Below are positions 90-38,015 of a DNA stretch of 38,015 nt, in pieces. Both the position numbers and the translations under genes were made by a program. Position 1 is the stretch's first letter, and each line of letters opens with the position of its first letter. The DNA comes from a candidate division WOR-3 bacterium (GTDB taxonomy: Bacteria > Hydrothermota > UBA3073 > JACQXS01), in assembly GCA_023129235.1 (NCBI GenBank), contig JAGMCN010000034.1, positions 1-38,015 of the forward strand, in the 5' to 3' direction. The notes below the pieces were generated by a model. The model saw only the letters and a list, made by a program, of their open reading frames with translations. It searched no databases and was not told where the DNA came from.

Positions 90-114
90 TTGTTCGCAGA
101 ATCCTGTGGACAAG
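90..114. repeat. ~23-bp imperfect hairpin repeat, copy 1 of 4
   Basis: TTGTTCGCAG-AATC-CTGTGGACAA; related copies at 34812-34834, 35076-35095 (reverse complement) and 36341-36363 (reverse complement). Confidence 0.75.
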
Positions 115-149
115 CAGAGAGTTTTAAATAATTAAAAAAGGGGGGAAGA

Positions 150-1250
150 ATGAATGAGCCAAAAGCAAAGATTAAAGAGGAGCTCAAGAAGTTTCTATCA
201 GAGAAATTGGTTAGTAGAGTGAAAAACTACAAGGTCAAAGGAATAAGCGAATCTGACACTAAAGCAAAACTTGTAGAACCATTATTTGAGAAATTAGGAT
301 GGGACCTTCGCGGAGAAGAAGTAATAAGAGAATATCCAATTGGGTTAGAGGTGAAACCTGTAGATTATTTATTTAAAATAGATGAAGAAGCTCAATTTCT
401 TATGGAAGTTAGGAAAATTAATGTTTCATTAGAAGACAAGTCAGGAATAATGGAACAGAGCAAAGCAAACAGTATTAACTGGTGCGTGTTCACAGATGGG
501 AATAAAATAGAGGTATATAATTCTGATTGGGCCGGAGATGTTAAGAATAAAAAGTTTTTTGAAGTCTCTTTGGAAAAGCTTTCTCAAGAATTTTCTGGGA
601 GATTTGATACATTTTTTGAGAGTGTATGGTTATTATCCAGAGAAAGCATGATATCTCGGGAGTTGGAAAAAGAGGGAGAAAGAGAATATGCCAAGAGAGT
701 AATTTTGGAGATATTTAAAGATGAAGAGACCTTGAAATTCATAGGCGGAAGAGCAAGAGTTAAAAAAGTAAAGGTGAAGATAGTAAGAAATGTTCTTAGG
801 GAATTGGAGATTAAAGAAGCTTTCCCTTTTCCATTAAGGCCCCCGGAGGAATTAGTTCCAAAAGAAAAAGAGGTTGCCTCGAAAATCGCATCTGCCAAAG
901 AATCCCCAAAAACAGTTGCTCCAACTGACCAAGAGGATGTTATGGGAGAGATTATAGAGCATATTCACGATTCCTCAGTAAAAGAGGCTTTTAAGACAGC
1001 GATAGATACATTTAGAAAATTCGGCAGGGATGTAAGCGAAGAGCCAACCAAGAAAGTTGTTGTTTATAAGGTTAAAAACAGGGGCTTTGCGAAGTTACAT
1101 CCTTATAGAAATTATTTTGAGATAAGCATCTTTAATTTAGCTCTTAGGAAATGGTTATCATTTGATGTTGAGCGAGAGACTTTAAACCGACTCCAAGATC
1201 GCATAGATAAAGCTAAAGATAGTTACAAGGAGCTCCGAAAAAGGAGATGA
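150..1250 (+). CDS. Type I restriction enzyme HsdR N-terminal-like (PD-(D/E)xK) domain protein with C-terminal DUF5655-like domain
   Basis: N-terminal SESDTKAKLVEPLFEKLGWD..EVIREY..KPVDY..LMEVRK..WCVFTDG matches the HSDR_N pattern. C-terminal FGRDVSEEPTKKVVVYKVKNRGFAKLHP resembles DUF5655. G-rich RBS upstream; ATGA overlap with nadE. Confidence 0.7.
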   Translation: MNEPKAKIKEELKKFLSEKLVSRVKNYKVKGISESDTKAKLVEPLFEKLGWDLRGEEVIREYPIGLEVKPVDYLFKIDEEAQFLMEVRKINVSLEDKSGIMEQSKANSINWCVFTDGNKIEVYNSDWAGDVKNKKFFEVSLEKLSQEFSGRFDTFFESVWLLSRESMISRELEKEGEREYAKRVILEIFKDEETLKFIGGRARVKKVKVKIVRNVLRELEIKEAFPFPLRPPEELVPKEKEVASKIASAKESPKTVAPTDQEDVMGEIIEHIHDSSVKEAFKTAIDTFRKFGRDVSEEPTKKVVVYKVKNRGFAKLHPYRNYFEISIFNLALRKWLSFDVERETLNRLQDRIDKAKDSYKELRKRR

Positions 1251-1966
1251 ATCTACCGGATAAAATAAGCGAATGGATTAAAGCCAAAGTAGATGAAGCG
1301 GGAGCAAAAGGAATTGTTCTTGGTTTGTCTGGAGGACTTGATTCAGCAGTTGTAGGGGTTTTGGCAAAGCAATCTTTAGGGAAAAATGTATTAGGAATCA
1401 TAATGCCCTGTCATAACGAGCAGGATTGCGAAGAAGATGCTAATCTCATCGCAACAAAATTCAAGATTAAGACAGCTCGCGTGGTTCTTGACAAGATTTT
1501 TGATGAACTCCTCAATGTTTTGCCTGATGCATCAAATCTAACTCAAGCTAATTTAAAGCCAAGACTCAGGATGCTTATTTTATATTATTTTGCGAATAAA
1601 CTAAATTATCTTGTGGCTGGGACTGGCAATAAGAGCGAGTTAACGGTCGGATATTTCACAAAGTATGGAGATGGGGGAGTTGACATTCTTCCTTTGGGTA
1701 GACTTTTGAAGACTCAGGTAATAGAGCTTGCGAAAGAGCTCAAAATACCTCAAAAAATAATAGAGAAAGCTCCTTCAGCAGATTTGTGGAAGGGGCAGAC
1801 AGACGAAGGAGAGCTTGGAATTTCGTATGCAGAACTTGACAAGACTATTCTGGCGATAGAATCTGGCAATCCAGAAACTACAGACCCAATGGTTTTAAAC
1901 AAGTTGCTCAATCTAATGCAAGCTTCAGAGCATAAAAGGTTGCCTGTCCCATTTTTAAAAACCTGA
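1247..1966 (+). CDS. nadE: NH3-dependent NAD+ synthetase
   Basis: GLSGGLDS, NLKPRLRM, GTGNKSE, GYFTKYGDGG and PSADLWKGQTDE motifs. Confidence 0.96.
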   Translation: MNLPDKISEWIKAKVDEAGAKGIVLGLSGGLDSAVVGVLAKQSLGKNVLGIIMPCHNEQDCEEDANLIATKFKIKTARVVLDKIFDELLNVLPDASNLTQANLKPRLRMLILYYFANKLNYLVAGTGNKSELTVGYFTKYGDGGVDILPLGRLLKTQVIELAKELKIPQKIIEKAPSADLWKGQTDEGELGISYAELDKTILAIESGNPETTDPMVLNKLLNLMQASEHKRLPVPFLKT

Positions 1967-1991
1967 ATTTTTTAGAATTTTAAAAATTAAG

Positions 1992-3785
1992 GTGAGAGAA
2001 AAAAGAATATCATCGCTTTTTTGTTTAACCTCTGCAATATTTTCAATTCTCCTAATAAGAATTATTGCACTTCAGCTAATGAATGTCCAAAAATACAAAC
2101 GACTTGCAAGAGAAAATTATGTAAAACCTCAAGTTGTAGAATCGCCAAGAGGAATAATATATAGCAGAGACAGAAAAGTACTTGCCGAGAATATTCCAAG
2201 TTATACAATTATTATAGATTCTAATCGGATAACAGAAGAGGAATATAGAGAATTTTCTTCATTTTTGAAGTTGCACAGCCATCCGGATAGTGTACCTTTA
2301 CAAACTGGAAGCCCGTGTCACTATGTAATAAATAAAATTCCTTTCTCAATAGTTTGTGATATTGAGGAACACAAAGAGGATTTTCCAAATGTTTCTATAA
2401 TAGCACGTCCAACAAGAAGATATCCTAATTATGAGATTTTTTCACACCTTTTGGGTTATACATCGGAGATTTCAAAAAAAGAGCTTAAAGCTCATCCCGG
2501 CTATAGATTAGGAACTACTATTGGTAAGTCAGGGATAGAAAAAAGTTATGAAGAATTTTTGCGTGGCAAAGATGGAACGAAGTATATAGAAGTGGATGTA
2601 AGAGGTCGTGAGCTCGAGCTTATATCTTATGTTTCTCCTGAGCCGGGTTGTGATATATGGCTTAATATTGATGCAGAACTTCAAATATTTGCTTATGAGA
2701 TTTTGCCAGATAGAGGAGCTTGTGTAGCAATGAACCCTCAAAGTGGTGAGATTCTATTGTGGGTATCAAAGCCGGGATTTGACCCAAATTTTTTCTCTGG
2801 AGGAATCCCTTCTAAAATATGGAGAGAATGGAGAGAAGATTCTCTTTCTCCTCTTTGGGACCGGGTAATGAAAGGATGTTTTCCTCCTGCTTCAGTTTTT
2901 AAGCTTATTACTGCTGCCGCTGGACTTGAAAAAGGAATAGTAGGTCCTCATACTAAACAACCAGTGCAATGCAATGGAAGTATGATGATTGGAAGAAGGG
3001 AATTCAAGTGTTGGGAGACTCACGGCTCTTTAAATTTAATAGATGCAATCGTTTACTCTTGTGATGTCTATTTTTACCAACTTGGAATCTTGCTTGGCGT
3101 CGAGAGAATAATGAGTCAAGCTAAAAAAGTTGGGCTTGGGGAGAAAACAGGAGTAGATATTCCAGGTGAACTTACTGGACTTATACCCTCAGAGAAATGG
3201 TATGACAAAAGATATGGCAAAGGTAGATGGAGTAAAGGAATTTCAGCAAATCTGTCGGTAGGACAAGGAGAGATACTTACCAGTCCACTTCAGATTTTGT
3301 ATTTTGTATCAGGAATTGCTAATCGCAAGGTTTTGAATACTCCGAGAATTGTAGCACGAGCAATAAGTTCAGATGGAGAAGAAGTTTTTTCAAACACTCC
3401 ACATTCTCGTACTCTCCCGTGGAGTGCTGAGACAATAGAAGTTTTAAGACAGGGGATGTTAGGAGTTGTGGAGAGGATTGATGGCACAGGAGGATTGGCG
3501 AGAGTTCCGGGAATAAAGGTAGCTGGGAAAACGGGAACAGCCCAGAATCCCGGCGGAGAGCACCATGCATGGTTTGTAGCTTTTGCCCCTTATGATAACC
3601 CTGAGATTTGTGTTGTGGTATTTATTGAAAATGGAGGGATGGGTGGTTCAGTAGCAGCCCCAATAGCAGGACAGATACTCAATAAGTTTTTCTACAAAAG
3701 TAAAGAGAGAATTTCTAAATCCGAAATCCTAAACTCTAAACAAATTCAAATGACCAAAATTCAAGACATATGTTTTGGATTTTGA
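1992..3785 (+). CDS. mrdA: Penicillin-binding protein 2 (class B transpeptidase)
   Basis: GTG start, N-terminal TM helix, PRGIIYSRD, GKSGIEKSYE; catalytic SVFK, SCD and KTGTAQ; HAWF. The last ~24 aa are read through a repeat element. Confidence 0.93.
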   Translation: MREKRISSLFCLTSAIFSILLIRIIALQLMNVQKYKRLARENYVKPQVVESPRGIIYSRDRKVLAENIPSYTIIIDSNRITEEEYREFSSFLKLHSHPDSVPLQTGSPCHYVINKIPFSIVCDIEEHKEDFPNVSIIARPTRRYPNYEIFSHLLGYTSEISKKELKAHPGYRLGTTIGKSGIEKSYEEFLRGKDGTKYIEVDVRGRELELISYVSPEPGCDIWLNIDAELQIFAYEILPDRGACVAMNPQSGEILLWVSKPGFDPNFFSGGIPSKIWREWREDSLSPLWDRVMKGCFPPASVFKLITAAAGLEKGIVGPHTKQPVQCNGSMMIGRREFKCWETHGSLNLIDAIVYSCDVYFYQLGILLGVERIMSQAKKVGLGEKTGVDIPGELTGLIPSEKWYDKRYGKGRWSKGISANLSVGQGEILTSPLQILYFVSGIANRKVLNTPRIVARAISSDGEEVFSNTPHSRTLPWSAETIEVLRQGMLGVVERIDGTGGLARVPGIKVAGKTGTAQNPGGEHHAWFVAFAPYDNPEICVVVFIENGGMGGSVAAPIAGQILNKFFYKSKERISKSEILNSKQIQMTKIQDICFGF

Positions 3786-3828
3786 ATTTAGATATTGTTT
3801 AGGATTTAGTGCTTTGAATTTAGGATTT
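3710..3828. repeat. Imperfect inverted repeat built of 7-nt units, overlapping the mrdA 3' end
   Basis: Left arm AATTTCT AAATCCG AAATCCT AAACTCT AAACAAA. Reverse complement of the right arm reads AAATCCT AAATTCA AAGCACT AAATCCT AAACAAT. Confidence 0.8.
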
Positions 3829-3839
3829 ATAAAAATAAG

Positions 3840-5615
3840 ATGGATTTTTGGGAAAGAATAAAGGAAAGAGTGCTTGTTGCTGATGGAGCAATGGGAACTC
3901 TTCTTTATGAGCGCGGAGTGCCAAAAGGTCATTGCTATGACGAGCTTAATCTGTCCAATCCAACACTCATTCAAGAAATACATAAAGCTTATCTTGATGC
4001 TGGTGCTGAGCTAATTGAAACTAATACCTTCGGGGCAAACGAGTATATTCTCTCAAAATACTATGACCTTGGTGAAAAAAGCAAAGAAATTAACTATAGA
4101 GGTGCGAAAATTGCAAGAGAAGTAGCGAGGGATAAATTTGTAGCTGGAACTGTAGGGCCGGTTACAAGACCACTTGAATCAAGAGAAAAGTTACAGTCAT
4201 CAGAAATAAAGGAGATTTTTACATCACAGATTCTTGCTCTTCTGGAAGGAGGAGTAGACCTCATTATCCTTGAGACTATGGCTTCTATTGATGAGCTTCT
4301 ATTGGGATTTCGGGCTGCAAGAGCAGTATGCGACCTACCTATAATATGCCAACTTTCATTTGCTGAAGATGGTCGCACAATTTTAGGTGTTGACCCTGTA
4401 GAGGCATCTATTAGACTTGACAAAGAAAAAGTCCAAATAATAGGTGCTAATTGCGGAATAGGACCCCAGAGCGTATATGAATCCATTCAGCGTATGGGGC
4501 ATATAACTCAGGCAACACTTTCAGCACAACCAAATGCAGGTAGAGCAAGTTGGACTGGAGAAAAGTTTGTGTATCCTGCTACACCAGAGTATTTTGCAGA
4601 CTACGCCAAACGTTATGTGAGTAGCGGAGTCTCGATAATAGGTGGTTGCTGTGGAACTACTCCTGCATACATATCTGCTATTAAAAACGCTGTTGAATCC
4701 TTAACTCCGAAGCCCAGAAAAATTGTGCAAATAAATGTAGGAGCAGGGTTGAAGCCCACTCCTACCGGTAGGGACGAGGTTACCTCGCCCCTACAACAAA
4801 TGCTTAAGGAGAAATTTGTTCTCAGTCTTGAACTTGAGCCACCAAAATCCACAAATGTTGAAAAAGAGTTACTCACAGCTGAAAGTTTTAAAAACTTAGG
4901 TGGGGATTGCGTTAATATATCAGATAATCCTATGGCGAGACTCCGGATGAGTCCTATTCCCCTTGCCCATATAATTCAGGATAAAGTGGATATTGAGGTA
5001 ATCCTACATTTTACCTGTAGAGACAGAAATCTCCTCGCAATTCAGTCTGACCTGATTGGAATGCATGCTCTGGGAATTCAGAACATACTTGCCCTAACAG
5101 GTGACCCACCATCAGTCGGGGATTATCCATTTGCAACAGCTGTTTTCGAAATTAACTCTGAAGGGCTTGTAGAAATCATAAACTCTCTTAACAATGGAAC
5201 AGACTGGCTCGGCAATCCAATTCCTAATCCAACTTCTTTTTTTGTGGGTGTTGCGAGTGGTTTAGACGGGCTATCCCGCACAAAGAAAAAAATAGCCAAA
5301 GGAGCAAGATTTATTCAAACTCAACCAATATTTGATATAGAGAATTTCCGAAAGTTTGTCTCGGAGTTCCCTGATATTCCTGTAATCGCAGGAATTCTTG
5401 TGCTTGGGAGCTTGCGACAGGCTGAGTTTATTCAAAATGAAGTCCCCGGAATTACTATCCCAGACCCAATAATGGAGAGAATGAAAAAAGGAGCTACTGA
5501 TGAGGGAGCAATTATTGCCAGAGAATTGCTTGGAGAGTTACGAAAGTTCTCCGATGGTGCGTGTATAATGATTCCAGGTGGAAAATATGAACTTATTAAG
5601 GATGTGCTAAAATGA
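3840..5615 (+). CDS. yitJ: Bifunctional homocysteine S-methyltransferase / 5,10-methylenetetrahydrofolate reductase (YitJ type)
   Basis: DGAMGT, ETNTFGAN, GANC and GGCCG (Zn ligands) in the N-terminal half; ELEPPK, ISDNPMA, HFTCRDRN, ALTGDPP and QTQPIFD in the MTHFR half. Confidence 0.92.
   Translation: MDFWERIKERVLVADGAMGTLLYERGVPKGHCYDELNLSNPTLIQEIHKAYLDAGAELIETNTFGANEYILSKYYDLGEKSKEINYRGAKIAREVARDKFVAGTVGPVTRPLESREKLQSSEIKEIFTSQILALLEGGVDLIILETMASIDELLLGFRAARAVCDLPIICQLSFAEDGRTILGVDPVEASIRLDKEKVQIIGANCGIGPQSVYESIQRMGHITQATLSAQPNAGRASWTGEKFVYPATPEYFADYAKRYVSSGVSIIGGCCGTTPAYISAIKNAVESLTPKPRKIVQINVGAGLKPTPTGRDEVTSPLQQMLKEKFVLSLELEPPKSTNVEKELLTAESFKNLGGDCVNISDNPMARLRMSPIPLAHIIQDKVDIEVILHFTCRDRNLLAIQSDLIGMHALGIQNILALTGDPPSVGDYPFATAVFEINSEGLVEIINSLNNGTDWLGNPIPNPTSFFVGVASGLDGLSRTKKKIAKGARFIQTQPIFDIENFRKFVSEFPDIPVIAGILVLGSLRQAEFIQNEVPGITIPDPIMERMKKGATDEGAIIARELLGELRKFSDGACIMIPGGKYELIKDVLK
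4737..4794. repeat. Two tandem GTAG-type REP-like palindromes, in frame inside the yitJ interdomain linker
   Basis: GTAGGAGCAGGGTTGAAGCCCACTCCTAC (4737-4765) and GTAGGGACGAGGTTACCTCGCCCCTAC (4768-4794). The second shares its arms with the intergenic copy at 34461-34490. Confidence 0.85.
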
Positions 5616-5683
5616 ACCACAAGAGCATAGATACCGTCCTCTGCCTTTATGGGAAAATACTTTTCGGGGCTCAATAGTTAGGA

Positions 5684-6421
5684 ATGGGAAAAATGAATAT
5701 AAAAAGGTGTATTTTTGAGGGTGTTCTGATTTTTGGTACGGCTTTTACTTTATGGGCTGGAGACATTGCAAAATTTAATGATGTCTCTATACTTGATAAC
5801 GAAAATGCGTATGCAGTTGGAAATAATGGAGCGGTTATGAAAAAGACACAAGATAAGTGGAAAGAAATAAATCTTGCAGTAACTCCTCAAATTAAACAAA
5901 CTGAATGGGACTTTCGGGGTATATGCTTTGTAGATTCACAAACTGGCTGGATTGTTGGCAATAATGATGAGCAACAAGGTGTTGTGTTGAAAACAAAAGA
6001 TGGAGGAGAGAATTGGACTGCCGAGTTTCCAAAAGTAAGAGGTAAGGAGCTTCCATTTTATTGTATCAATTTCAGCAATGCAAGTATAGGATATATTGGA
6101 GCTGGCAATGGTTATGTGTTGAAAACTGTATATGGTGGTAAAAAGTGGATACCAACTGCCAAGCCAGTTCCTATTAGGATGTATAAGTCTAAATGTAAAG
6201 TTATAAGTTTATGGGTAGAGAGAGATTCTCCTCTTGGAGATCATGTGTGGGCTGAGGTAGTTACTGAAGAGGGGAAAAGAATGGTTTCGCGAAGTATAGA
6301 TGGAGGATGCAGTTGGGATATATGGGATCCTCTTTATGATAAAGAGTTTAGGGAGTTGTTTGGTATGACAAGAAATAATCCTGATTGGGTTAAGCCAAGT
6401 AGAGTAGATAGTAGCGAGTAG
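5684..6421 (+). CDS. Secreted YCF48/BNR (Asp-box) repeat protein
   Basis: Signal peptide; Asp-box-like repeats TKDGGENW, TVYGGKKW and SIDGGCSW; FVDSQTGWIVG. Confidence 0.75.
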   Translation: MGKMNIKRCIFEGVLIFGTAFTLWAGDIAKFNDVSILDNENAYAVGNNGAVMKKTQDKWKEINLAVTPQIKQTEWDFRGICFVDSQTGWIVGNNDEQQGVVLKTKDGGENWTAEFPKVRGKELPFYCINFSNASIGYIGAGNGYVLKTVYGGKKWIPTAKPVPIRMYKSKCKVISLWVERDSPLGDHVWAEVVTEEGKRMVSRSIDGGCSWDIWDPLYDKEFRELFGMTRNNPDWVKPSRVDSSE

Positions 6422-6436
6422 TTAGTAGATAGGGAA

Positions 6437-8083
6437 ATGATAAGACTTTTAAACAGTAAGGTGAGGATTTATCCCTTGCGAATAAGAATATTTTTTATAA
6501 GTTTTATTGTTTTAACTCCAAGCCTCGTATATCCTTTAGAGCTTCATAACCTGGAGCTTGTGCTGGAAATTATGAGACCCGATACCTCTTCAATACATTC
6601 ACCTTTGGGGATTGGACTTGCCAGTGGAGATGTAAATGGAGACGGGTTTAGTGATATTATTGTAGGAGGAGGGGGGATTGGATACGATAAGTGTGTATGT
6701 GTCTATTATGGTGGAGAGACCCCAGACCCCACTCCTGATGTAATTATTATGCAAAAACCAGAAGATGAGGGGAATGCCTTTGGTAATTATGTAACAGTGG
6801 GAGATATAAATGGTGATGGATATGACGATGTAATGATAGGCGGTGGTTACCAAAGCCGCGCATATTTTGGAGGCGACCCAATGGACTCATTGCCTGATTT
6901 AATGCTAGAGTGTGGAGAATGGATGGGATGTGGTGACTTAAATAATGATGGATATGACGATTGGGCAATTGGACAGTGTGTCTGGGATGAAGGAAGAGGA
7001 AAAGTAATTATTTATTTTGGTGATTCTATTCCTGACATAATCCCTGATATTGTCTTATATGGTGAAGAGATTGGAAGAGGAAATTTTGGAGGGAGTATCC
7101 AGAGCGGGTTCGATGTGAATGGTGATGGATATGAGGATTTGTTTATATCTGCTAAAGGATATTATGGAAATAATGGGACCTGGCAGTATCAGGGTAAAAC
7201 TTATATTTATTATGGAGGTGACCCGATGGATACGGTTCCTGATGTTACAATGCTTGGCAAGTGCCCTTGGGACTTTTTTGGTATACCTGCGCTTGTGCCA
7301 GACCTTACCGGCGATGGATTTGATGATGCCTGTGTAGGGGACCCACTTGACAATGTGCATGATACGGTTTATTCTTACTGGGGTGGAAATCCGATGGATA
7401 GTGGAGTTGATTTAATCTTTAGCGGTGAATACTCTCGCAATCGATTTGGAAATTCAATTGGAGGTATAGAAAAAGTACACCCAAGCGGTTCAAAAGCAGT
7501 AAGTATTGGGAGTTGTTGTTATCCTGATCCTTATATTGATACTCTTCTACGTGGTAAAGTTTATGTTTATTTAGGAGGGACATCTCTTGACATTGTAGTT
7601 GATGCCTGGGCAGTTGGTGTAGATAGCCAGGAGATAGGATGGGTGGTTGCAAGTGCTGGTGATGTTGATGGCGATGGGATAGATGAAATTATGTTCTCAA
7701 ATTACGCGGCATTATCTTATATTCCTCACAAAGTCTGGATATGCAAGTATACGGGACCGGGGGTGGAAGAAACCAATTATCAATTAGCAATTAACAATTA
7801 TCAATTAGCAATTTCTCCAAATCCAGTTGTTCGGAGAGCAGTCATTAATTATCAGTTGCCAGTTAAAAGTAAGGTATCACTGGAAATTTATGATGTTAGT
7901 GGGAGATTAGTGAAGAAATTGTTTGATAAGTCCCAAAAGTTAGGGCAGTATGAAGTTATATGGAACGGGACTGATGAGAAAGGGAAGTCAGTGGCATCAG
8001 GAGTCTATGTTTTTAAGTTAAAAGTAAAAAGTGAAAAGTTGGAAGTTGAAAGGACAAAGAAGATACTTTTTTTAAAAGAGTAA
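6437..8083 (+). CDS. FG-GAP (integrin-alpha) repeat protein with C-terminal FlgD-Ig/T9SS type A-like sorting domain
   Basis: Repeated GDVNGDGFSD, GDINGDGYDD, GDLNNDGYDD and GDVDGDGIDE; C-terminal GVEE..SPNP..IYDVSGRLV..WNGTDEKG..GVY..K. Confidence 0.88.
   Translation: MIRLLNSKVRIYPLRIRIFFISFIVLTPSLVYPLELHNLELVLEIMRPDTSSIHSPLGIGLASGDVNGDGFSDIIVGGGGIGYDKCVCVYYGGETPDPTPDVIIMQKPEDEGNAFGNYVTVGDINGDGYDDVMIGGGYQSRAYFGGDPMDSLPDLMLECGEWMGCGDLNNDGYDDWAIGQCVWDEGRGKVIIYFGDSIPDIIPDIVLYGEEIGRGNFGGSIQSGFDVNGDGYEDLFISAKGYYGNNGTWQYQGKTYIYYGGDPMDTVPDVTMLGKCPWDFFGIPALVPDLTGDGFDDACVGDPLDNVHDTVYSYWGGNPMDSGVDLIFSGEYSRNRFGNSIGGIEKVHPSGSKAVSIGSCCYPDPYIDTLLRGKVYVYLGGTSLDIVVDAWAVGVDSQEIGWVVASAGDVDGDGIDEIMFSNYAALSYIPHKVWICKYTGPGVEETNYQLAINNYQLAISPNPVVRRAVINYQLPVKSKVSLEIYDVSGRLVKKLFDKSQKLGQYEVIWNGTDEKGKSVASGVYVFKLKVKSEKLEVERTKKILFLKE
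7774..7815 (+). repeat. In-frame 7-nt microsatellite (CAATTAN)x6
   Basis: CAATTAT CAATTAG CAATTAA CAATTAT CAATTAG CAATTTC; encodes NYQLAINNYQLAIS. Confidence 0.9.
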
Positions 8084-8102
8084 GAGGAAATAGTAATGCT
8101 TA

Positions 8103-8156
8103 AGAGAGATACAGAGATTAGATATATAAATGTTTTCCTCTGTGCTCTCTGTGGTT
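8103..8156. repeat. Degenerate ACAGAG/CTCTGT periodic inverted repeat
   Basis: AGAGAGATACAGAG ... CTCTGTGCTCTCTGTGGTT in the intergenic region. Confidence 0.55.
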
Positions 8157-8171
8157 AAAAAAGGAGATAAA

Positions 8172-9245: not shown

Positions 9246-9246
9246 T

Positions 9247-9324
9247 ACACAGATTCTCACAGATAGAACAGATTTGCACAGAATATAATCTGTGACAATC
9301 TCTCTAATCTGTGTATATCTGTGT
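9247..9324. repeat. Periodic imperfect inverted repeat (ACAGAT units facing ATCTGT units)
   Basis: ACACAGATTCTCACAGATAGAACAGATTTGCACAGA-ATATAA-TCTGTGACAATCTCTCTAATCTGTGTATATCTGTGT. Confidence 0.8.
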
Positions 9325-9344
9325 GCTAAATAAAAGGAGGAGAT

Positions 9345-10262: not shown

Positions 10263-10264
10263 GG

Positions 10265-10293
10265 GTAAGGGCGGGTTTAAACCCCGCCCTTAC
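10265..10293. repeat. REP-like GC-rich palindrome between convergent genes (possible terminator role)
   Basis: GTAAGGGCGGG-TTTAAAC-CCCGCCCTTAC, 11-bp perfect stem, no clear U-tract on either strand. Confidence 0.75.
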
Positions 10294-10302
10294 TATAAAT
10301 CT

Positions 10303-12804: not shown

Positions 12805-12992
12805 CTTTCCTCCTTTCCTTGTATGATTTAACTCATCTCTGCCTTCGTTTATATTCTATGGACACCACCGCCTCTAAATTTTTGTATAATAACCTCAAAA
12901 AACTCTCTTTATAGAGTATTAAATTTACATTGTGCCTGTCGTAGGCTCTATGAGTGTTATAATTTCCTGTGTTGCAGACTCTATGAGATGAT

Positions 12993-14543: not shown

Positions 14544-14565
14544 AATTACATCTCCTGAAAATATG

Positions 14566-14594
14566 TATATACTACAATTTTGTTAATTTGTCAA
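14566..14594 (-). promoter_or_regulatory. Candidate sigma70-type promoter for the 14543 gene
   Basis: TTGACA (14594-14589), 17 nt spacer, TATATA (14571-14566); the -10 match is imperfect. Confidence 0.4.
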
Positions 14595-14610
14595 GTTCTT
14601 TTTGAAAAAT

Positions 14611-22328: not shown

Positions 22329-22331
22329 AAA

Positions 22332-23558: not shown

Positions 23559-23607
23559 TTTTATTGCAAGCTGGAGTATTTGGTGTTTACAATATTAGGA
23601 GTTGCCA

Positions 23608-24975: not shown

Positions 24976-24983
24976 GGTATTTT

Positions 24984-28799: not shown

Positions 28800-28804
28800 A
28801 TAAT

Positions 28805-31035: not shown

Positions 31036-31061
31036 TTTCATCAGTTTTTTTAATCATTAGT

Positions 31062-32105
31062 ATGTTTTCAGTATTAATGTCTGTGTATCATATTGAAAAG
31101 CCAAATTATTTGGATCTTGCGTTCAAATCTCTTTACGAGCAAACATTTAAAGACTTTCAAATTGTGCTTGTATGTGATGGACCTTTAACAAAAGGAGTAA
31201 ATGCTCAAATAGAAAAGTGGAAATCTGTATTTAAAGAAAAGTTATTAGTTGTAAGGTTAAAAGAAAATAAAGGATTAGGAATTGCCTTGCAGGAAGGACT
31301 TAAACATTGCAAGTATGATATAGTTGCCAGAATGGATACAGACGATTATTGCGACCCTACCCGTTTAGAAAAGCAATATAACTTTTTAAAAAGTCATTTA
31401 TCTATTGAGGTAGTGAGTTGTGCATTAAAAGAATTTGTAGAAACACCCGATAATGTAATTTCTGTAAAACCAGTATATGAGACACATAAAGAGATTGAGA
31501 AAAAGTTTTGGTTTAGAAATCCTATAAATCATCCTGCTGCAATGTTCAGAAAGAAAACAGTTCTAAAAGTAGGCGGATATAAAGATTTGCTGTTTCTGGA
31601 AGACTATTATTTATGGAGCAGAATGTGGGTAAATAAATCAAAATTTTGGAATCTTACCGAACCACTTTATTACCAACGTATTGATAAAAATTTCTATAAA
31701 CGACGAGCTGGGATTACGCAATTGAAAAATGAAATTTTTATAAGGCAGTATTTATATAAAAACCATAAAATAGGTCTTCCCAAATTTCTTGCATCAATAG
31801 TTATTCAAGTATTCTTGAGGTCAACACTTCCTGGAATCCGCCGTTTCTTCTGGTCTAAAATCAGAAAAAAGTATAAAGGATACAAAAACATTAACAAACG
31901 CAATGATGAAAATGATAGAATTGAGCGAGGAAAAAAGAAAACAAGTGAAGAAAAGGGGAAGAAAGTCTTAAAAGAATTTGATGAAAAGATTATTATTAAA
32001 AAGTACTTGGAAGTTCTGCCAGAGATTAGTGAATTAGATAATAGGGGAAAGATGAAACCACAGATTTCACAAAATTACATTGATTCAAAAGCACAGGAGT
32101 TGTAA
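31062..32105 (+). CDS. Glycosyltransferase family 2 (AmsE-like) with aberrant C-terminal extension
   Basis: FSVLMSVY, VCDGPL, NKGLGIAL, ARMDTDD, NHPAAMFRK and EDYYLW motifs; the last ~75 aa derive from a relic of another gene plus a repeat. Confidence 0.85.
   Translation: MFSVLMSVYHIEKPNYLDLAFKSLYEQTFKDFQIVLVCDGPLTKGVNAQIEKWKSVFKEKLLVVRLKENKGLGIALQEGLKHCKYDIVARMDTDDYCDPTRLEKQYNFLKSHLSIEVVSCALKEFVETPDNVISVKPVYETHKEIEKKFWFRNPINHPAAMFRKKTVLKVGGYKDLLFLEDYYLWSRMWVNKSKFWNLTEPLYYQRIDKNFYKRRAGITQLKNEIFIRQYLYKNHKIGLPKFLASIVIQVFLRSTLPGIRRFFWSKIRKKYKGYKNINKRNDENDRIERGKKKTSEEKGKKVLKEFDEKIIIKKYLEVLPEISELDNRGKMKPQISQNYIDSKAQEL
31873..32030 (+). pseudogene. 3' relic of a deleted GT4 glycosyltransferase
   Basis: An alternative frame reads IKDTKTLTNAMMKMIELSEEKRKQVKKRGRK, then shifts to KVLKEFDEKIIIKKYLEV, a typical GT4 C-terminal helix pair. 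Confidence 0.65.
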
Positions 32106-32293
32106 TGTTAGAAAAGACGAAAATATCAAAGACAAATATTGAATGTTATAATGCGTGGAGAGTGAATGGATTAAGCGTAAGTCCATTTGTATTTGTGATT
32201 AAAAAATTATCGAAGATTTTGCAATTTCCTTTTTTCAACCGCTTACAGAGTCTGTCGCAGACTCAACGAGCGACAGATGAATCCGTCAGTTGA
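32105..32293 (+). pseudogene. Probable 3' relic of a WcaE-like GT2 glycosyltransferase
   Basis: KTNIECYNAWRVNGL..FVIKKLSKILQF resembles C-termini of WcaE-like GT2 proteins (from recall, not searched); the rest of the ORF runs through repeats. Confidence 0.45.
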
Positions 32294-32374
32294 CGGAATA
32301 GACACAGATGCAATCTAAATGAGAAACAATCTCAAGTAATGTATAAAGCTACAGACTCGCATGAAATAAAAATG

Positions 32375-32401
32375 TTGACTTTCATATTTTTAATATATGA
32401 T
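32375..32401 (+). promoter_or_regulatory. Candidate internal promoter for gmd-fcl
   Basis: TTGACT (32375-80), 15 nt spacer, TATGAT (32396-401), 8 nt before the ATG; no SD sequence. Confidence 0.35.
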
Positions 32402-32409
32402 TAAACAAG

Positions 32410-33456
32410 ATGAGAAAGAAAGCTCTAATCACGGGAATAACAGGTCAGGATGGTTCTTATTTAGCAGAGTTCTTACTTTCAAAGGGATATAAGGTTCACG
32501 GAATTATAAGAAGAACAAGCACTTTCAATACATCCCGTATAGACCATATTTATCAGGACCCTCATGCCCCTGGGACGAAATTGTTCTTGCATTACGGTGA
32601 CCTTATGGATAGTGAACAGATAAATGACATAATTTACAATATAAAACCCGACGAAGTTTATCACTTAGGTGCCCAAAGTCATGTAAGAGCGAGTTTTGAT
32701 ATGCCTGAATACACTGCTAATGTCACGGCTCTTGGAACAACCCGAATTTTAGAAGCAATAAGAAGAAGCGGAAATAAAATAAAGTTCTATCAAGCGTCAA
32801 GTAGTGAGATGTTTGGCGCGTCTAAACCGCCTCAAAATGAAGAATCGCCTTTTAAACCACGCAGTCCCTATGCCTGCAGTAAGATCTATGCTTATTGGAT
32901 GGTAGTAAATTATCGTCAGGGTTACGGTCTTTTTACCTCTAATGGTATCTTATTTAACCATGAAAGTCCTCGTCGGGGAGAAACTTTTGTAACTCGCAAA
33001 ATCACACGTGCCATCGCTTCGCTTCTCGCCAAAAAACAAGATTGTCTTTATCTGGGCAATCTTGAAGCCAAGCGAGATTGGGGATTCGCACCTGAGTATG
33101 CAGAGTTTATGTATAAGATGCTCCAGAATAGTAAGCCGGACGATTTTGTCATAGGTACGGGTGAAACCCATTCTATAAAGGAATTTGTGGAAGAAGCTTT
33201 CTCTTATATTGGCTTGGATTGGAGAAAATATGTAAAGATTGATCCCCGATATCTCAGGCCCACAGAAGTGGAAGAATTAGTGGCTGATTCAAGAAAGGCA
33301 AAGAAAATTTTAGGATGGGAGCCTAATATACGATTTAAAGAATTGGTGAAGATAATGGTGGATACAGATATGCGAAAAATGGGATTAACTCCAATAGGGG
33401 AAGGAGATAAAATCTTGAAAGAAAAGTTTCCACAGAGATGGTGGAAGGTAGATTAG
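32410..33456 (+). CDS. gmd: GDP-mannose 4,6-dehydratase
   Basis: [52 protein letters not shown] and RDWG motifs. Confidence 0.97.
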
Positions 33457-33468
33457 TATAGTTTATAA

Positions 33469-34431
<963 letters not shown>

Positions 34432-34460
34432 AATTAAAACTTATAAGCCACGAAAACACT

Positions 34461-34490
34461 GGTAGGGACGTTCAATTGAACGCCCCTACC
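34461..34490. repeat. GTAG-type REP-like palindrome
   Basis: GGTAGGGACGTTCAATTGAACGCCCCTACC; arms identical to the copy at 4767-4794. Confidence 0.85.
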
Positions 34491-34686
34491 ATAATATAAT
34501 TTCTTTTGTGTACCTTAGTGTTTTGGGAATTTTGTTGCAGACTCCGTGAGTGGCATTTTGTAAAAATTGCATTGGTTTTGCAAAAACTGCATACATAGAT
34601 AGACACAACTTGTTTTCAGTGGGTTTCTTAACCTGCCAGACAGACCTCCCTATAAAAGATAGGGGACTCCCCATGAAAGATAAATC

Positions 34687-34753
34687 TTGCCGCAAAGACA
34701 CAGAAGTTGCAAAGTTTTATTTTTCCTCTGCGTTCTTCGCGTCTCTGCGGCGA
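34687..34753. repeat. Periodic imperfect inverted repeat (GCAAAG/CTCTGC units)
   Basis: TTGCCGCAAAGACACAGAAGTTGCAAAG ... CTCTGCGTTCTTCGCGTCTCTGCGGCGA. Confidence 0.7.
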
Positions 34754-34811
34754 AAATCTTTTTTCTTGACTTTGATATAACTTTTGCTATTAAATTAAAA
34801 GTGAAGGGCAG

Positions 34812-34834
34812 GTTCGCAGAATCCGTTGGACAAG
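34812..34834. repeat. ~23-bp hairpin repeat, copy 2 of 4
   Basis: GTTCGCAGAATCCGTTGGACAAG, 21/23 identical to 92-114. Confidence 0.75.
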
Positions 34835-34880
34835 TATTTTGAACAAAAGTAGAAATAATAGTTTCAAAGGATAGGTAAGG

Positions 34881-35930
34881 ATGGGATATATCTGGAAAAT
34901 ATTGCTTTCTTTTATCATAAGCTGTGCCATCCAGTATATAGTAGTTTGCCTTGCTCGCAAATTCAACTTTTTTATAGATAGGGTAGATGACAAGCCCCAG
35001 AGGTTTCATAAAGACCCTATCCCAAGAGCCGGTGGGATAGGCATTCTTGTAGGCAGTTTTATTCTGCTAACATCCTGTCCACATTCTGCGAATAAAATAG
35101 GTATAGGTATTCTTTTGATTCTATCAAGCTTGCCTTCCTTCTTGATTGGGAAGGTGGAAGATTTAAGAAATAATTTATCAGTTAAAATAAGGTTTCCTCT
35201 CTTAATCATTTCTCCTATTCTGGGAATGTTCCTTCTTGGAAATATAGTAAAGGATACAGGGATATTTACTCTCCCAATGATAATTGCAATTCCATTTACA
35301 TTATTTGCGGTTATAGGGATGACCAATGCTATAAATATCATAGATGGATTTAATGGACTTGCTTCGGGAATATCTTTAATTGCTTTTGGCTTTTTGGGGT
35401 TAGCGGCTTACATTGTTGGCGATATTGAACTTCTAAGGATAATAGGAATCTTGTCTGCTTCTTTGCTTGGCTTTTTTGTGTGGAATTTTCCAAGAGGAAG
35501 AGTATTTCTCGGAGATGGAGGAGCGTATTTTCTCGGCTTTATGCTTGCAAGCATTTCTATATTACTTGTAAATAGGAATCCACAAATATCACCATGGTTT
35601 ATTCTTGTGATTTTAGCATACCCGGTGTGGGAGGTCATATTTTCTGCGTATAGGAAAAAGATGGTAAGGAAGAAAAGCCCACTGGTATCAGATAGAGTTC
35701 ATCTACATATGTTGATATATCAACGCATTACCAAAACACACTGGAAGACATCCGTATATTTATGGATGCCCAGCGTGTTTATTGGTAGTTTAGGAATAGC
35801 ATTTTCCCGTTCAGCATTGATTTTAAGCATACTCTTGTTAATCTACATACTTTTTTATAATCTCTTCTATAATAGAATAGTAAGGTTTAAAGTGAAAAAA
35901 TTAAGAAAAATACAAAAGGTTAAGAAATAA
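34881..35930 (+). CDS. wecA: Undecaprenyl-phosphate alpha-N-acetylglucosaminyl 1-phosphate transferase (WecA/MraY family)
   Basis: PQRFHKDPIPRAGGIGI, NAINIIDGFNGLA, WNFP..VFLGDGGAY and DRVHLHMLIY motifs; many TM helices. Confidence 0.88.
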   Translation: MGYIWKILLSFIISCAIQYIVVCLARKFNFFIDRVDDKPQRFHKDPIPRAGGIGILVGSFILLTSCPHSANKIGIGILLILSSLPSFLIGKVEDLRNNLSVKIRFPLLIISPILGMFLLGNIVKDTGIFTLPMIIAIPFTLFAVIGMTNAINIIDGFNGLASGISLIAFGFLGLAAYIVGDIELLRIIGILSASLLGFFVWNFPRGRVFLGDGGAYFLGFMLASISILLVNRNPQISPWFILVILAYPVWEVIFSAYRKKMVRKKSPLVSDRVHLHMLIYQRITKTHWKTSVYLWMPSVFIGSLGIAFSRSALILSILLLIYILFYNLFYNRIVRFKVKKLRKIQKVKK

Positions 35931-35986
35931 AAGATGCCGAATCTCTGAAAAAAGCAGAGAGAAAACTCATAACTCTCAGCTATAAT

Positions 35987-38015
35987 ATGAAAACTTATGC
36001 TTATGGTTTCCCGCGATTAGGACAAAATCGGGAGTATAAAAAAAGTATAGAGAGCTTCTGGAAAAGAGAAACATCAAAGCAGGAGCTTGTTTCAAAAATC
36101 TTCCAATTAGAAAGAGAAATTATTGATAAATATGAGAACAGTGTGGATAAGTTCCCTGTAGGCGAGATGACTTTTTATGATAATATGCTGGACACAGCTT
36201 TGATGCTTGGACTTTATCCTTACAAAACTCTTGAAGAATATTATGACTTATGTTGGGGCAAAAGTGCTCTGGAGTTAAGTAAATGGTTCAATACAAACTA
36301 CCACTATCTTATACCTGAATTTCCTCAAGATTTCTCTCCCTCTCCACAAGATTCTGCGAATAAATTTAAACTATTATGGAATAAGCCGAAAGAAGCATTT
36401 GAACGATATAAAATTGGAGCGAAGCGGAAATCCCGTTCCGGCGGGAAGGGAATCCCCTATATGATAGGACCATTTACTTTTTTGAAATTAAGCAAGGGAC
36501 TTAAATCTAAAGATTTTGAAGACTCCCTGCTCGCATTAGGAGCAATATATAAAGAAATAATTAAAGATTTCCCGGAAGTCCACATTGACGAACCTGCTTT
36601 AGTTATGGAAATTTCACAGGTAGAACTCTCTTTATTTAAGCAAGTATATAATGAAATAGGGCATTCTTCTAAAATAAATCTCTTTACTTATTATGACTCT
36701 GTGGATTATTTAGAAATTCTATATAGTCTGCCCCTACAAGCTATTGGACTGGATTTTGTTCAGGGCAAAGCCAACTTAGATGAGATAAGAAAATACGGTT
36801 TCCCAGAAGATAAGGTTTTAATTGCCGGGATAGTTAATGGCAGAAATGTTTTGAGAGGCAATATCGAATACTATCTTGCTTTACTAAAAGAACTATCCGG
36901 TTATGCCAAAAATATTGAAATTTCAAATGCAGGACCTCTTTACCATTTACCCATATCAGTGAAGCAGGAAAAGTTTCCTCCAGAACTCTCGGGAAAGTTA
37001 GCTTTTGCCAATGAGAAACTGGAGGAGTTAAAAACTATCGGGAGAATGGTTGAAGAACGAGAACCCACACTCAAGAATTTAGAGGATTTTAAGCATAAAA
37101 TACCTCAGGATATTAAGAGATTAAAAGAAAAGGATTTTAAAAGAGCAGTCACTTTTCAGGAACGGAGAAAGATACAAAATAAGGTTTTAGATTTACCTCT
37201 TTTCCCTACAACAACTATAGGTAGCTTTCCTCAAACTCCCGATATTCGGAAAAAAAGAGCAGATTTCCGCACAGGCAAGATATCCAAGGAGGAGTATAAA
37301 TCCTTTATTAAGACAAAAATTGAGGAGTTAATTAAGCTTCAGGAAGATATAGGATTAGATGTTCTGGTGCATGGAGAATTTGAGCGAAGTGATATGATTG
37401 AGTTCTTCGCTGAAAAATTAGAAGGTATTACCACTACCAAGAATGGATGGATTATTTCTTATGGGACTCGGTGCTACCGTCCGCCTATTATTTATGACGA
37501 CGTGAAAAGGAAAGCACCTTTGACCCTGGAAGAGATAGCTTTTGCTCAGTCAATTACCAAAAAGCCTGTAAAAGCCATACTTACAGGACCTGTAACAATT
37601 GTTTCCTGGAGTTTTGTGCGGGATGATATACCCTTACCTTTAGTTGCTTATCAAATTAGTTTAGCCCTGCAGGAAGAAGTTAAGGACTTAGAAAAAGCAG
37701 GAATAAAAATCATTCAGATTGACGAGCCCGCTTTTAGGGAAAAAACACCCATTAAAAAAAGAGATTGGGAAACGTATTTTGATTGGGCTATAAAATCTTT
37801 CAGACTTGCCAGTTCTTTATCCTCGCCAGAGACTCAAATACATACTCATATGTGTTATTCAGAATTTGGCGAAATACTTGAGTATATTGAGAAAATGGAC
37901 TTTGACTGCATTACAATTGAGGCAAGTCGTAGCAGGGGAGATACTTTACAGTATTTCAAGGATATAAACTTTGAGCGGCAAATTGGTCCAGGAGTCTGGG
38001 ATGTTCATTCACCTG
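35987..38015 (+). CDS. metE: Cobalamin-independent methionine synthase, 3' end beyond the window
   Basis: Not in the ORF track because no stop is reached. Hand translation gives MKTYAYGFPRLG, KWFNTNYHY, IGPFTFLKLSK, PTTTIGSFPQT, VHGEFERSDM, QIDEPAFRE, HTHMCYSEF (Zn ligands) and IGPGVWDVHSP. Confidence 0.96.
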   Translation, partial: MKTYAYGFPRLGQNREYKKSIESFWKRETSKQELVSKIFQLEREIIDKYENSVDKFPVGEMTFYDNMLDTALMLGLYPYKTLEEYYDLCWGKSALELSKWFNTNYHYLIPEFPQDFSPSPQDSANKFKLLWNKPKEAFERYKIGAKRKSRSGGKGIPYMIGPFTFLKLSKGLKSKDFEDSLLALGAIYKEIIKDFPEVHIDEPALVMEISQVELSLFKQVYNEIGHSSKINLFTYYDSVDYLEILYSLPLQAIGLDFVQGKANLDEIRKYGFPEDKVLIAGIVNGRNVLRGNIEYYLALLKELSGYAKNIEISNAGPLYHLPISVKQEKFPPELSGKLAFANEKLEELKTIGRMVEEREPTLKNLEDFKHKIPQDIKRLKEKDFKRAVTFQERRKIQNKVLDLPLFPTTTIGSFPQTPDIRKKRADFRTGKISKEEYKSFIKTKIEELIKLQEDIGLDVLVHGEFERSDMIEFFAEKLEGITTTKNGWIISYGTRCYRPPIIYDDVKRKAPLTLEEIAFAQSITKKPVKAILTGPVTIVSWSFVRDDIPLPLVAYQISLALQEEVKDLEKAGIKIIQIDEPAFREKTPIKKRDWETYFDWAIKSFRLASSLSSPETQIHTHMCYSEFGEILEYIEKMDFDCITIEASRSRGDTLQYFKDINFERQIGPGVWDVHSP
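36413..36446 (+). repeat. Short GC-rich palindromic element in frame in metE
   Basis: ATTGGAGCGAAGCGGAAA-TCCCGT-TCCG-GCGGGA, encodes IGAKRKSRSGG within AT-rich flanks. Confidence 0.6.

Follow-up and report, generated by a model that had tools for sequence, protein, structure and literature searches.

The window, the entire stretch of 38,015 nucleotides analysed here, belongs to a 1.71 Mb assembly that is 62% complete (G000) and contains four copies of a very short repeat, all at the places given in the initial annotation. The family, designated F1, has the 18-nt core TTCGCAGAATCCTGTGGA. An exact copy on the forward strand (93..110) is intergenic, 39 nt past a tRNA fragment (1-54), the only Rfam match in the window at the gathering threshold, and ahead of an ORF that starts at 150. 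The flanking letters, TTG and CAAG, lengthen the stem of this copy to 10 bp, and the copy is present with identical flanks at locus L011 of another assembly. The stem had been described as forming on one strand only; its folding energy (DNA, flanks included) is -4.9 kcal/mol (z -3.2), compared to -1.9 kcal/mol for the other strand. The repeat had been taken to be about 23 bp long; the real unit is 18 nt, and the letters TTG ... CAAG represent a target preference and lie outside the element.

The second copy (34813..34830, forward strand), which departs from the core at two positions (GT instead of TG in the 3' arm), is located upstream of a wecA-like ORF of the Glycos_transf_4 type (34881-35930). 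A same-genus genome, 93% complete (G001), lacks it in the orthologous spacer, as does a contig of run X3, which skips 34789-34880. Within the wecA-like ORF, a 15-nt remnant on the reverse strand (35078..35092), consisting of the core without AGG, is read in frame as C-P-H-S-A-N-K. Since the X3 contig spans 34880-36227 free of gaps, this copy is older and common to the X3 strain.

The fourth copy (36343..36360, reverse strand, one mismatch) lies in frame in the MetE ORF (35987-38014, open at its 3' end), where it adds P-Q-D-S-A-N and is read in context as S-P-Q-D-S-A-N-K. The metE gene of G001 has a gap of exactly 18 nt at this site, and the six residues are missing in 19 of 19 other MetE homologs. 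In independent public data, the X3 contig left out exactly 18 nt at 36343, and run X1 gave a 12-nt loose end reading the empty-site metE junction. The comparison with homologs that the initial annotation proposed showed a clean insertion in metE (18 nt, six residues). In the wecA-like gene, the remnant is part of a 21-nt segment that G001 lacks, the rest being an apparent 6-nt duplication of ATAGGT. A local duplication of the adjacent PQDFS codons, once considered as the origin of the metE copy, was ruled out because the inserted letters are those of the family consensus.

Related 18-nt families are also represented in intergenic DNA, on the forward strand at 12971..12988 (GTCGCAGACTCTGTGAGA type, two mismatches) and at 34534..34551 (GTTGCAGACTCCGTGAGT), the latter in a region with a 16-nt gap in the G001 alignment (34541-34556). 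Two further related-family copies, inverted and mutually overlapping, occupy intergenic positions 32241..32272.

Abundance and host range

A 20-mer search with up to three mismatches gave 3 matches in the window compared to 0.00 expected from 100 shuffles. The genome scan suggested earlier yielded about 60 copies against 0-2 expected. More exactly, there are 61 copies in G000, 18, 21, 8 and 14 of them with 0, 1, 2 and 3 mismatches, respectively (43 variant copies), while three Markov simulations gave none at up to two mismatches and 0-2 at three. F1 is the most abundant 13-mer repeat family of G000, with a density of approximately one per 28 kb.

Copies were present in 10 of 41 relatives, G000 included. 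At no more than one mismatch, there were 40 in G000, 52 in G002, 27 in G006, 11 in G019 and 7 in G013, and a single copy in G001 of the same genus; a reversed control pattern gave 0 in every relative scanned. The same 18-mer occurs in multiple copies, patchily, in these relatives and in Flammeovirgaceae, Calditrichia, Ignavibacteria and Chitinophagaceae MAGs, with 40 copies in the Flammeovirgaceae MAG and 18 in the Calditrichia MAG at up to two mismatches, and also in a single-contig chromosome record (OY762937). T9SS sorting domains, a typical feature of the FCB group, occur in the hosts, and the named matches are Bacteroidota, Ignavibacteria and Calditrichia. The identity of one 18-mer across several FCB-group phyla, with patchy counts, would most readily be accounted for by horizontal spread and subsequent bursts in individual lineages.

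There were no exact matches in viral contigs. The 52 matching stretches in metagenome contigs were set aside as evidence because they are a mixture of chance matches, single loci and true copies; only 12 of the 52 have the G at +4 described below and a dozen represent one conserved high-GC locus. High-GC singletons in Gemmatimonadaceae/Steroidobacteraceae (one orthologous gene), Mycolicibacterium and Verrucomicrobia were taken as chance, about 17 chance matches being expected.

Filled and empty sites

Comparison of orthologous alleles was carried out with G002, which is about 91-97% identical to G000, and with G001. Two sites, C157:6318 and C13:17607 (C-numbers are G000 contigs), are filled in G000 only and empty in both G002 and G001. 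At C112:14959 the empty allele is that of G002, and at C199:22499 that of G001; C195:9060 is occupied in G000 and G002 but not in G001. The filled and empty alleles differ by 18 nt alone, with no target duplication. Moreover, 18 nt is the modal length among indels of at least 9 nt, accounting for 8 of 43 between G000 and G002 (85,943 aligned bases) and 9 of 57 between G000 and G001 (69,615 aligned bases).

F1 also inserts into itself. Nested copies occupy the loop or the 3' arm of existing copies to give 36-nt pairs. The G002 ortholog of C195:11124 has a second 18-mer between C11 and C12, and the 36-nt nested pair at C112:11631 is missing from G001. The same two internal sites were used again at C13:6600, C13:10368, C178:881, C178:1431, C178:2211, C183:5049 and C25:5552. 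In addition, 5 of the 61 copies lie within or abut period-7 heptamer arrays, compared to 0.78 expected, and in C215 and C79 the AGAGTTG register continues unbroken across the insert.

F1 is probably a mobile, non-autonomous mini-insertion with a fixed length of 18 nt. The genome scan and the gaps in homologs support the initial view, in which the repeat is a tiny non-autonomous mobile element that extends housekeeping proteins by short peptides.

Target site and hairpin

The target is loosely defined, T-T-(G/T/A) preceding the insert and N-A-N-G following. Its strongest position is the G at +4, found in 39 of 45 copies (1.58 bits). On one strand, the core can form a 7-bp stem that includes two G-T/G-U pairs (T2-G17 and G4-T15), with a folding energy of -2.0 kcal/mol, compared to -1.2 kcal/mol on the other. 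The hairpin is weak: 21 of the 43 variant copies have lost the central pair, 5-14, and the 34813 and metE copies fold poorly. Among the same 43 copies, the wobble strand keeps G-U or Watson-Crick pairing in 42 and 40 at the two wobble positions, whereas the other strand is mismatched in 40 and 32. Changes at the wobble pairs are mostly to Watson-Crick pairs (C-G 3, A-T 5, G-C 4, with one double change). Pairing between the flanks showed no excess over the shuffled expectation. Copy orientation relative to GC skew was unbiased (15 against 12) on these short contigs, so that a lagging-strand mechanism is neither supported nor excluded.

Coding context

The 18-nt unit is six codons long and has no stop in any of the six frames, and as a result most copies sit in ORFs. 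ORFs of at least 100 aa, assigned by length and not by gene calls, hold 50 of the 61 G000 copies, compared to 89.5% of random windows; 12 of the 50 are within the first tenth of the ORF, so some may precede the true start. The initial annotation had noted regularities of orientation and frame among the copies of the window. Neither these nor a general rule tying orientation to gene context held genome-wide, where 21 ORF copies are same-sense and 29 antisense and four of the six frames are common. The depleted frames are the two that encode RRILW or HRILR, and only 4 of the 50 copies are in frame 1 (p = 2.7e-5). The rarity of the RRILW and HRILR frames suggests that the insert may be translated, with selection then acting on the peptide as a filter; part of the depletion could instead come from a target preference linked to codon phase.

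In G006, 23 of 28 copies are inside ORFs. In the Flammeovirgaceae MAG only 2 of 17 are, the other 15 being in intergenic arrays with inverted partners, which indicates that F1 behaves differently in different hosts.

Search for a mobilizing enzyme

No mobilizing enzyme could be tied to F1 among the neighbouring genes and Y1 loci examined. The initial annotation had proposed looking for copies beside an HUH/Y1 transposase, and neither of the two Y1 genes of G000 is flanked by F1. Both have flanking repeats of their own, which are a hairpin with a GTAG tag for the gene on C211 and GTGCCAGGCAC for that on C96, with no F1 nearby. One case of association was found in the Calditrichia MAG (L265), in which a Y1 gene lies amid 6-7 F1-like copies, all in the orientation of the gene. 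A tblastn search with this L265 Y1 protein gave no match in G000, 62% complete. For 19 of 20 Y1 loci in seven other genomes, the flanks have no F1-like copy, and in two of these 19 an F1-like match occurs solely inside the Y1 coding region. There was no Y1 gene downstream of F1 at five loci with a conserved context, L006/L029 (the same place), L289, L302, L317 and L325, and no conserved neighbour gene across 59 F1 loci. Y1 genes are present in 31 of the 41 relatives, with or without F1.

Discussion

The closest analogue of F1 is the small dispersed repeats (SDRs) of cyanobacteria. These repeats, which Elhai and colleagues reportedly described in 2008 in Nostoc and related cyanobacteria, are said to be 21-27 nt long, to form hairpins, to occur in heptamer tandem arrays and within one another, and to be insertion-polymorphic between relatives. 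We know of no enzyme for them. The likeness, drawn from descriptions, extends to the very short dispersed hairpin, the heptamer arrays, the self-nesting and the insertion polymorphism. In contrast to the 21-27 nt of SDRs and their cyanobacterial hosts, F1 indels are exactly 18 nt, and F1 is found in MAGs of the FCB group, mostly in frame within ORFs. Literature searches with the 18-mer and the core on both strands, and for SDRs, RPE/in-frame elements and nested, heptamer or hairpin repeats, found no description of F1.

Other systems share some of these features. Rickettsia palindromic elements are palindromic repeats of approximately 100-150 bp, known from one genus, that lie in frame in protein genes and add peptides. 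F1 resembles them as a palindromic selfish repeat that is in frame within genes and adds a peptide, but has 18 nt and crosses phyla. The IS200/IS605-derived palindrome-associated elements move by single-strand 'peel and paste', need separate left and right end hairpins and are several-fold longer than F1. They have in common with F1 the lack of target duplication, a mismatched hairpin, an adjacent sequence preference and a preference for unpaired or structured DNA; however, IS200/IS605 elements recognize a tetranucleotide before the element, whereas the strongest F1 position is 4 nt after it. The target-site duplication that surrounds the terminal inverted repeats of DDE-type MITEs is absent in F1. 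In the literature on repeat coding elements, PARCEL and the organelle palindromes are loose analogues only.

REP/REPIN sequences with their RAYT (Y1) transposases are imperfect palindromes of about 20 nt in tens of dispersed copies with no target duplication (PMC3116915; PMC3733652), and one end of a REP bears a conserved tag, GTAG or CGTC (PMC3733652). F1 is similar in size, palindromic character, copy number and lack of duplication, and its intergenic arrays in the Flammeovirgaceae MAG parallel the inverted doublets of REPINs. However, REP/REPIN sequences are extragenic whereas 50 of the 61 G000 copies are in ORFs, and the tag is absent from the F1 core and flank consensus; G000 has a separate GTAG-tagged REP family. 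While RAYT genes are flanked by their cognate repeats, F1 shows this arrangement once (L265), and the G000 Y1 genes have other cognate repeats.

We infer that F1 may move as a single-stranded hairpin, handled by an enzyme that would be encoded elsewhere. The preferred candidate, tentative and with considerably less than even confidence, is a single-strand transposase of the HUH/Y1 (IS200/RAYT-like) kind that would act where DNA is unpaired. More broadly, there is a nearly even chance that F1 and its sister 18-mers constitute a new minimal class of mobile DNA, an 18-nt hairpin that genes tolerate owing to its length and freedom from stops, that an unrecognized trans-acting activity would insert into unpaired DNA without duplication, that would be able to cross between FCB phyla, and that would be both the smallest mobile element known and a steady source of six-residue insertions in housekeeping proteins.

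Alternatively, the repeat could spread via an RNA copy, in that a reverse transcriptase or some ribozyme-like activity would insert the transcribed hairpin into DNA or copy it back, a route that was reportedly proposed by Elhai and colleagues for the cyanobacterial repeats. We consider it unlikely. The wobble pairs T2-G17 and G4-T15 hold on one strand only, copy 1 is located just past a tRNA gene where transcription would cover it, and insertion into heptamer arrays and nesting occur as in SDRs, but the near-equal numbers of sense and antisense ORF copies (21 versus 29) argue against this route. Moreover, G-T pairs are tolerated in single-stranded DNA hairpins too, so the strand asymmetry cannot separate RNA from single-stranded DNA. 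Still less probable is a larger transposon with imperfect 9-nt termini, TTCGCAGAA and TCCACAGGA, of which the 18-mers would be the footprints or solo ends left behind once the body was lost or excised. The two halves do match, at 6 of 9 positions, as an imperfect inverted repeat, and the core is embedded in larger repeats elsewhere, with longer flanks shared by 5 of 28 copies in G006 and the core at the tip of longer stems at the Ignavibacteria loci L042 and L060. However, halves separated by 19-6000 nt in G000 proved to be pairs of intact copies or nested 18-mers, with no parent among them, target duplication is absent, and both close relatives have neither the copy nor any larger insert at the newly filled sites.

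A selected motif that is immobile (protein-binding, DNA-uptake or DnaA-box-like) and accumulates by mutation and recombination is very improbable. It would account for the retention of one 18-mer in several phyla, and the reverse strand, which begins TCCACA and reads TTNTCCACA when the common flank is included, may resemble a DnaA box. DNA uptake sequences, however, have a high density and arise by point mutation rather than insertion. The density of F1, about 60 copies in 1.71 Mb, is far below that of known uptake sequences; its filled and empty alleles differ by whole 18-nt gaps and not by substitutions, its copies nest in one another, and a genome of the same genus that is 93% complete has one copy. 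Least credible of all are an ancestral origin of the 18 nt with recurrent precise deletions, and an artefact of assembly or of adapters. Two copies are at contig ends (C195:1-18 and C199:24288-24305) and the exact 18-mer appears in many unrelated assemblies, but neither G002 nor G001 has the copy where G000 alone is filled, all 19 MetE homologs lack the residues, and ORFs pass through the copies in frame. The copies bear 1-3 substitutions, some common to orthologous sites with diverged flanks (L001 and L043), and F1 is present in the single-contig record.

If F1 is indeed a mobile 18-nt hairpin, it would rank with the smallest mobile DNA known from bacteria, and copying of such a hairpin to new sites would bring the size floor of mobile DNA below the approximately 20-40-nt REPs and the 21-27-nt cyanobacterial repeats. 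The activity that moves it would need almost no sequence in the element itself. The clean pairs of filled and empty sites in G000 and G002 provide a handle on a mechanism unsolved since the cyanobacterial repeats were described. F1 would also offer compact genomes a route for short in-frame peptide insertions into enzymes such as MetE. Annotation and phylogenetics of these MAGs call for caution, as a six-residue 'lineage-specific loop' or a contig break can be a repeat insertion.

Copy number and hairpin structure

The initial annotation described four related stretches of about 23 bp. All four were found at the positions it gave, with TTCGCAGAATCCTGTGGA as their common unit; however, this unit (family F1) is 18 nt long, similarity among the aligned copies stopping at the 18-nt edges, with only a flank preference persisting beyond. 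The copy at 93-110 (+) matches the 18-mer exactly, the spacer copy at 34813-34830 (+) has two mismatches and the copy at 36343-36360 (-), within the MetE ORF, has one. The fourth stretch, at 35078-35092 (-) in a Glycos_transf_4 (wecA-like) ORF, is a 15-nt remnant that lacks AGG. When the window was searched with a 20-mer, 3 matches were obtained, compared with 0.00 expected. The expectation of further copies was borne out by a scan of the genome (1.71 Mb, 256 contigs, of which the window is C185; 37.9% G+C, 62% complete), which found 61 copies at up to three mismatches, 18 of them exact and 21, 8 and 14 with one, two and three mismatches, respectively. Three first-order Markov genomes had no match at up to two mismatches and 0-2 at three. 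No other non-simple 13-mer family in the genome is as frequent as F1, and two contig ends fall inside a copy.

As single-stranded DNA the 18-mer had a folding energy of -2.0 kcal/mol (z -2.7), compared with -1.2 for the complementary strand, with the stem pairs T1-A18, T2·G17, C3-G16, G4·T15, C5-G14, A6-T13 and G7-C12. Among 43 variant copies, the two wobble pairs changed mostly to Watson-Crick pairs, while the central pair was broken in 21. Sister families are also 18 nt long and keep the TCGCAG/CTGTG stem with different loops. About 25 copies of GTCGCAGACTCTGTGAGA were found at up to three mismatches and 5 of GTCGCAGACTCCTTTGGA at up to one; the 27 three-mismatch matches to the latter may overlap other families. 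The window holds three sister-family copies.

Other short repeats were also observed. A GTAG-tagged palindromic REP family of the TGTAGGGG...CCCCTACA type lies at 34460-34494 in the window (best 13-mer, 14 copies), and the genome has the repeats TGTCCTTATAAGATAGACATCA (best 13-mer, 30 copies) and GTTCCACCATAAGTTTTAGTCCACA (best 13-mer, 21 copies), the latter of which may be a CRISPR repeat, as well as several further heptamer arrays.

Filled and empty sites

F1 is a mobile 18-nt unit that inserts without target duplication. Orthologous DNA was compared with that of two genomes of the same genus, G002 (~91-97% identical) and G001 (~78%), and the filled and empty alleles differed by precisely 18 nt. 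At C157:6318 and C13:17607 the genome under study alone has the insert, both relatives being empty. G002 also lacks the unit at C112:14959, and G001 lacks it at C199:22499 and at C195:9060, the last of which is filled in G002 as well as in the genome under study. In the window, the metE copy corresponds to a gap of exactly 18 nt in G001, the spacer copy at 34813 is missing there and the wecA remnant lies inside a 21-nt segment missing from the same genome. No target duplication was present in any filled/empty allele pair. Moreover, 18 nt was the commonest length among indels of at least 9 nt, accounting for 8 of 43 relative to G002 (85,943 aligned bases) and 9 of 57 relative to G001 (69,615 aligned bases); part of these were gains in G002 or G001.

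The proposal that the metE copy is an insertion was supported by the homolog alignment, in which the six residues were absent from 19 of 19 other homologs; the two closest (84% and 81% identity, BLASTP) also lack them. In a public sequencing run from another study (X3), a 3,940-nt contig over wecA-metE omits the 18-nt unit at 36343. Run X1, possibly the source sample, has a contig that enters the empty-site junction by 12 letters and another that spans the filled metE form. Contigs cannot yield allele frequencies.

MetE contains another in-frame mini-insertion at 36413-36445, whose 33 nt encode 11 residues (IGAKRKSRSGG). G001, 19 of 19 MetE homologs and the X3 contig all lack it; it has two copies in the genome, many matches in the related genome G003 and many loose ends in all four runs. 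The closest MetE homolog, P0002, shows a 15-residue insertion unique to it, KSSGGDKPRPYDLGR, elsewhere in the alignment (columns 102-116); therefore, MetE lineages have each gained different small insertions.

Target sites, nesting and heptamer arrays

The 5' flank of F1 reads T, T, then G, T or A (never C), and the 3' flank reads N-A-N-G; 39 of 45 copies carry the G at +4 (1.58 bits). These letters are part of the target, since the empty alleles carry them. Pairing between the flanks showed no excess over shuffled flanks, so the 10-bp stem of the copy at 93-110 is a by-product of target preference.

F1 also inserts into itself, at two recurrent internal positions. Same-orientation insertions between T13 and G14 were found at C112:11631, C13:6600, C13:10368 and C178:881, and opposite-orientation insertions between C11 and C12 at C178:1431, C178:2211, C183:5049 and C25:5552, as well as in the C195:11124 allele of G002. 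The unit also prefers heptamer arrays: 5 of the 61 copies lie within or abut period-7 tandem arrays, which make up 0.54% of the genome, compared with 0.78 expected (Poisson p = 0.0013). On contigs C215 and C79 the AGAGTTG register is unbroken across the insert. A FliK-like ORF of 818 aa with a Flg_hook domain (C178:255-2708, -) contains about a dozen copies of the 18-mer, its long low-complexity N-terminal part being made of heptamer arrays and 18-mers.

Residence in coding sequences

F1 resides in frame within genes. The 18-mer comprises six codons and is stop-free in all six frames, which is true of 14% of 18-mers drawn at random from the genome. Of the 61 copies, 50 (31 of 39 at up to one mismatch) are within ORFs of 100 aa or more, a slight deficit relative to random 18-nt windows (89.5%). 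The actual proportion in coding sequence is somewhat smaller, because ORFs were called on length alone and 12 of the 50 copies are located in the first tenth of their ORF. The regularity of orientation and frame noted in the window did not hold genome-wide, as 21 copies had the same orientation as the ORF and 29 the opposite, and several frames were used. The encoded peptides were PQDSAN (15), FAESCG (14), STGFCE (11) and SQNPV(D/E) (6), with HRILR (3) and RRILW (1) rare; these two make up frame 1, which was thus used by 4 of 50 (p = 2.7e-5). In G006, a related genome of another family, 23 of 28 copies were in ORFs, 4 of the 23 in frame 1. We read this skew as suggesting that the insert is translated and that basic and hydrophobic peptides are selected against; alternatively, it may reflect a target preference that depends on codon phase.

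Candidate mobilising enzymes and mechanism

Nothing in the window moves F1, in agreement with the initial annotation. Of 41 relatives, 31 have Y1_Tnp (HUH) single-strand transposase genes, whether or not F1 is present. The genome has two, and the suggestion that copies might flank such a gene failed there, since neither has F1 nearby. The gene on C211 (region 1400-2683) has the GTAG hairpin GTAGCGTCCGAT...ATCGGACGC on both sides, which looks like an ordinary pairing of REP with a REP-associated Y1 (RAYT); this hairpin differs from the window REP family at 34460-34494. The gene on C96 has GTGCCAGGCAC repeats upstream. Across seven other genomes, F1-like flanking copies were found at 1 of 20 Y1 loci, L265 (Calditrichia), where all 6-7 copies are oriented as the Y1 gene; its protein had no tblastn match in the 62% complete genome. 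Many Y1 proteins of this phylum, including three of four long ones tested, are fused to a helix-turn-helix of the DnaA C-terminal type; examples of ~320 aa are at L333:1384-2373, L334:1444-2400 and L081:1441-2412, and GGGGTCAGGC-type inverted repeats lie at the ends of such genes. On its reverse strand, F1 together with the usual flank gives TTNTCCACA, a sequence that may resemble a DnaA box. Neither a gene family recurring beside F1, across 59 loci, nor a larger parent element was found.

Because F1 favours tandem arrays and the loops of other hairpins, its target is probably unpaired DNA. Given such a target, a hairpin that bears mismatches and the lack of a target duplication, HUH/Y1 single-strand transposition would be the best fit, a tentative assignment that we consider somewhat unlikely; the enzyme and the carrier strand are both our inference. 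The main rival is movement by an RNA route, which has reportedly been proposed for cyanobacterial small dispersed repeats.

These repeats are the closest known to F1, both being hairpins, embedded in heptamers, nested and recently mobile; F1 differs in its 18-nt length, in its presence in other phyla and in its mainly intragenic location. Two features of REP/RAYT elements are missing, as F1 is not extragenic in this genome and has no REP end tag. MITEs make a target duplication, not seen here, and Rickettsia palindromic elements are far larger. The F1 sequence was not found in the literature searched.

Distribution

At up to one mismatch, F1 was present in 10 of 41 related genomes, with 40 copies in the genome under study, 52 in G002, 27 in G006, 11 in G019, 7 in G013, 3 in G021, 2 in G015 and 1 each in G001, G017 and G020; a reversed control pattern had no match in any related genome. 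With one genome per species, the exact 18-mer occurred in 57 stretches, compared with ~17 expected by chance. The high-GC single matches look like chance. The remainder cluster in MAGs of Chitinophagaceae, Ferruginibacter, Flammeovirgaceae, Ignavibacteria, Calditrichia, Kapaibacterium and Cytophagaceae. At up to two mismatches, one Flammeovirgaceae, one Calditrichia and one Chitinophagaceae MAG had 40, 18 and 6 copies, respectively, and an Ignavibacteriaceae chromosome had 5 (control pattern, 0). In the Flammeovirgaceae MAG, F1 is intergenic, arrayed with inverted partners and ATTCGCA/ATTCACA repeats, and 2 of 17 copies are in ORFs. The window host has T9SS sorting domains, its nearest named MetE relatives carry Marinimicrobia-type and Omnitrophota names, and the runs containing the window stretch are labelled cold seep metagenome.

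Many metagenome assemblies, some of them titled human gut metagenome, share a single conserved high-GC locus that contains the exact 18-mer (L283, L288, L296, L306, L309, L310, L312, L315, L320, L323, L324 and L328) and is probably unrelated to the family. In a class-level relative (L006/L029) and four metagenome contigs (L289, L302, L317 and L325), F1 has one conserved context, an (A)ATGGTGTCAA(G/T)TCTGTG repeat followed by F1 and then a conserved non-coding stretch. The same motif also flanks the G006 Y1 gene (L259).
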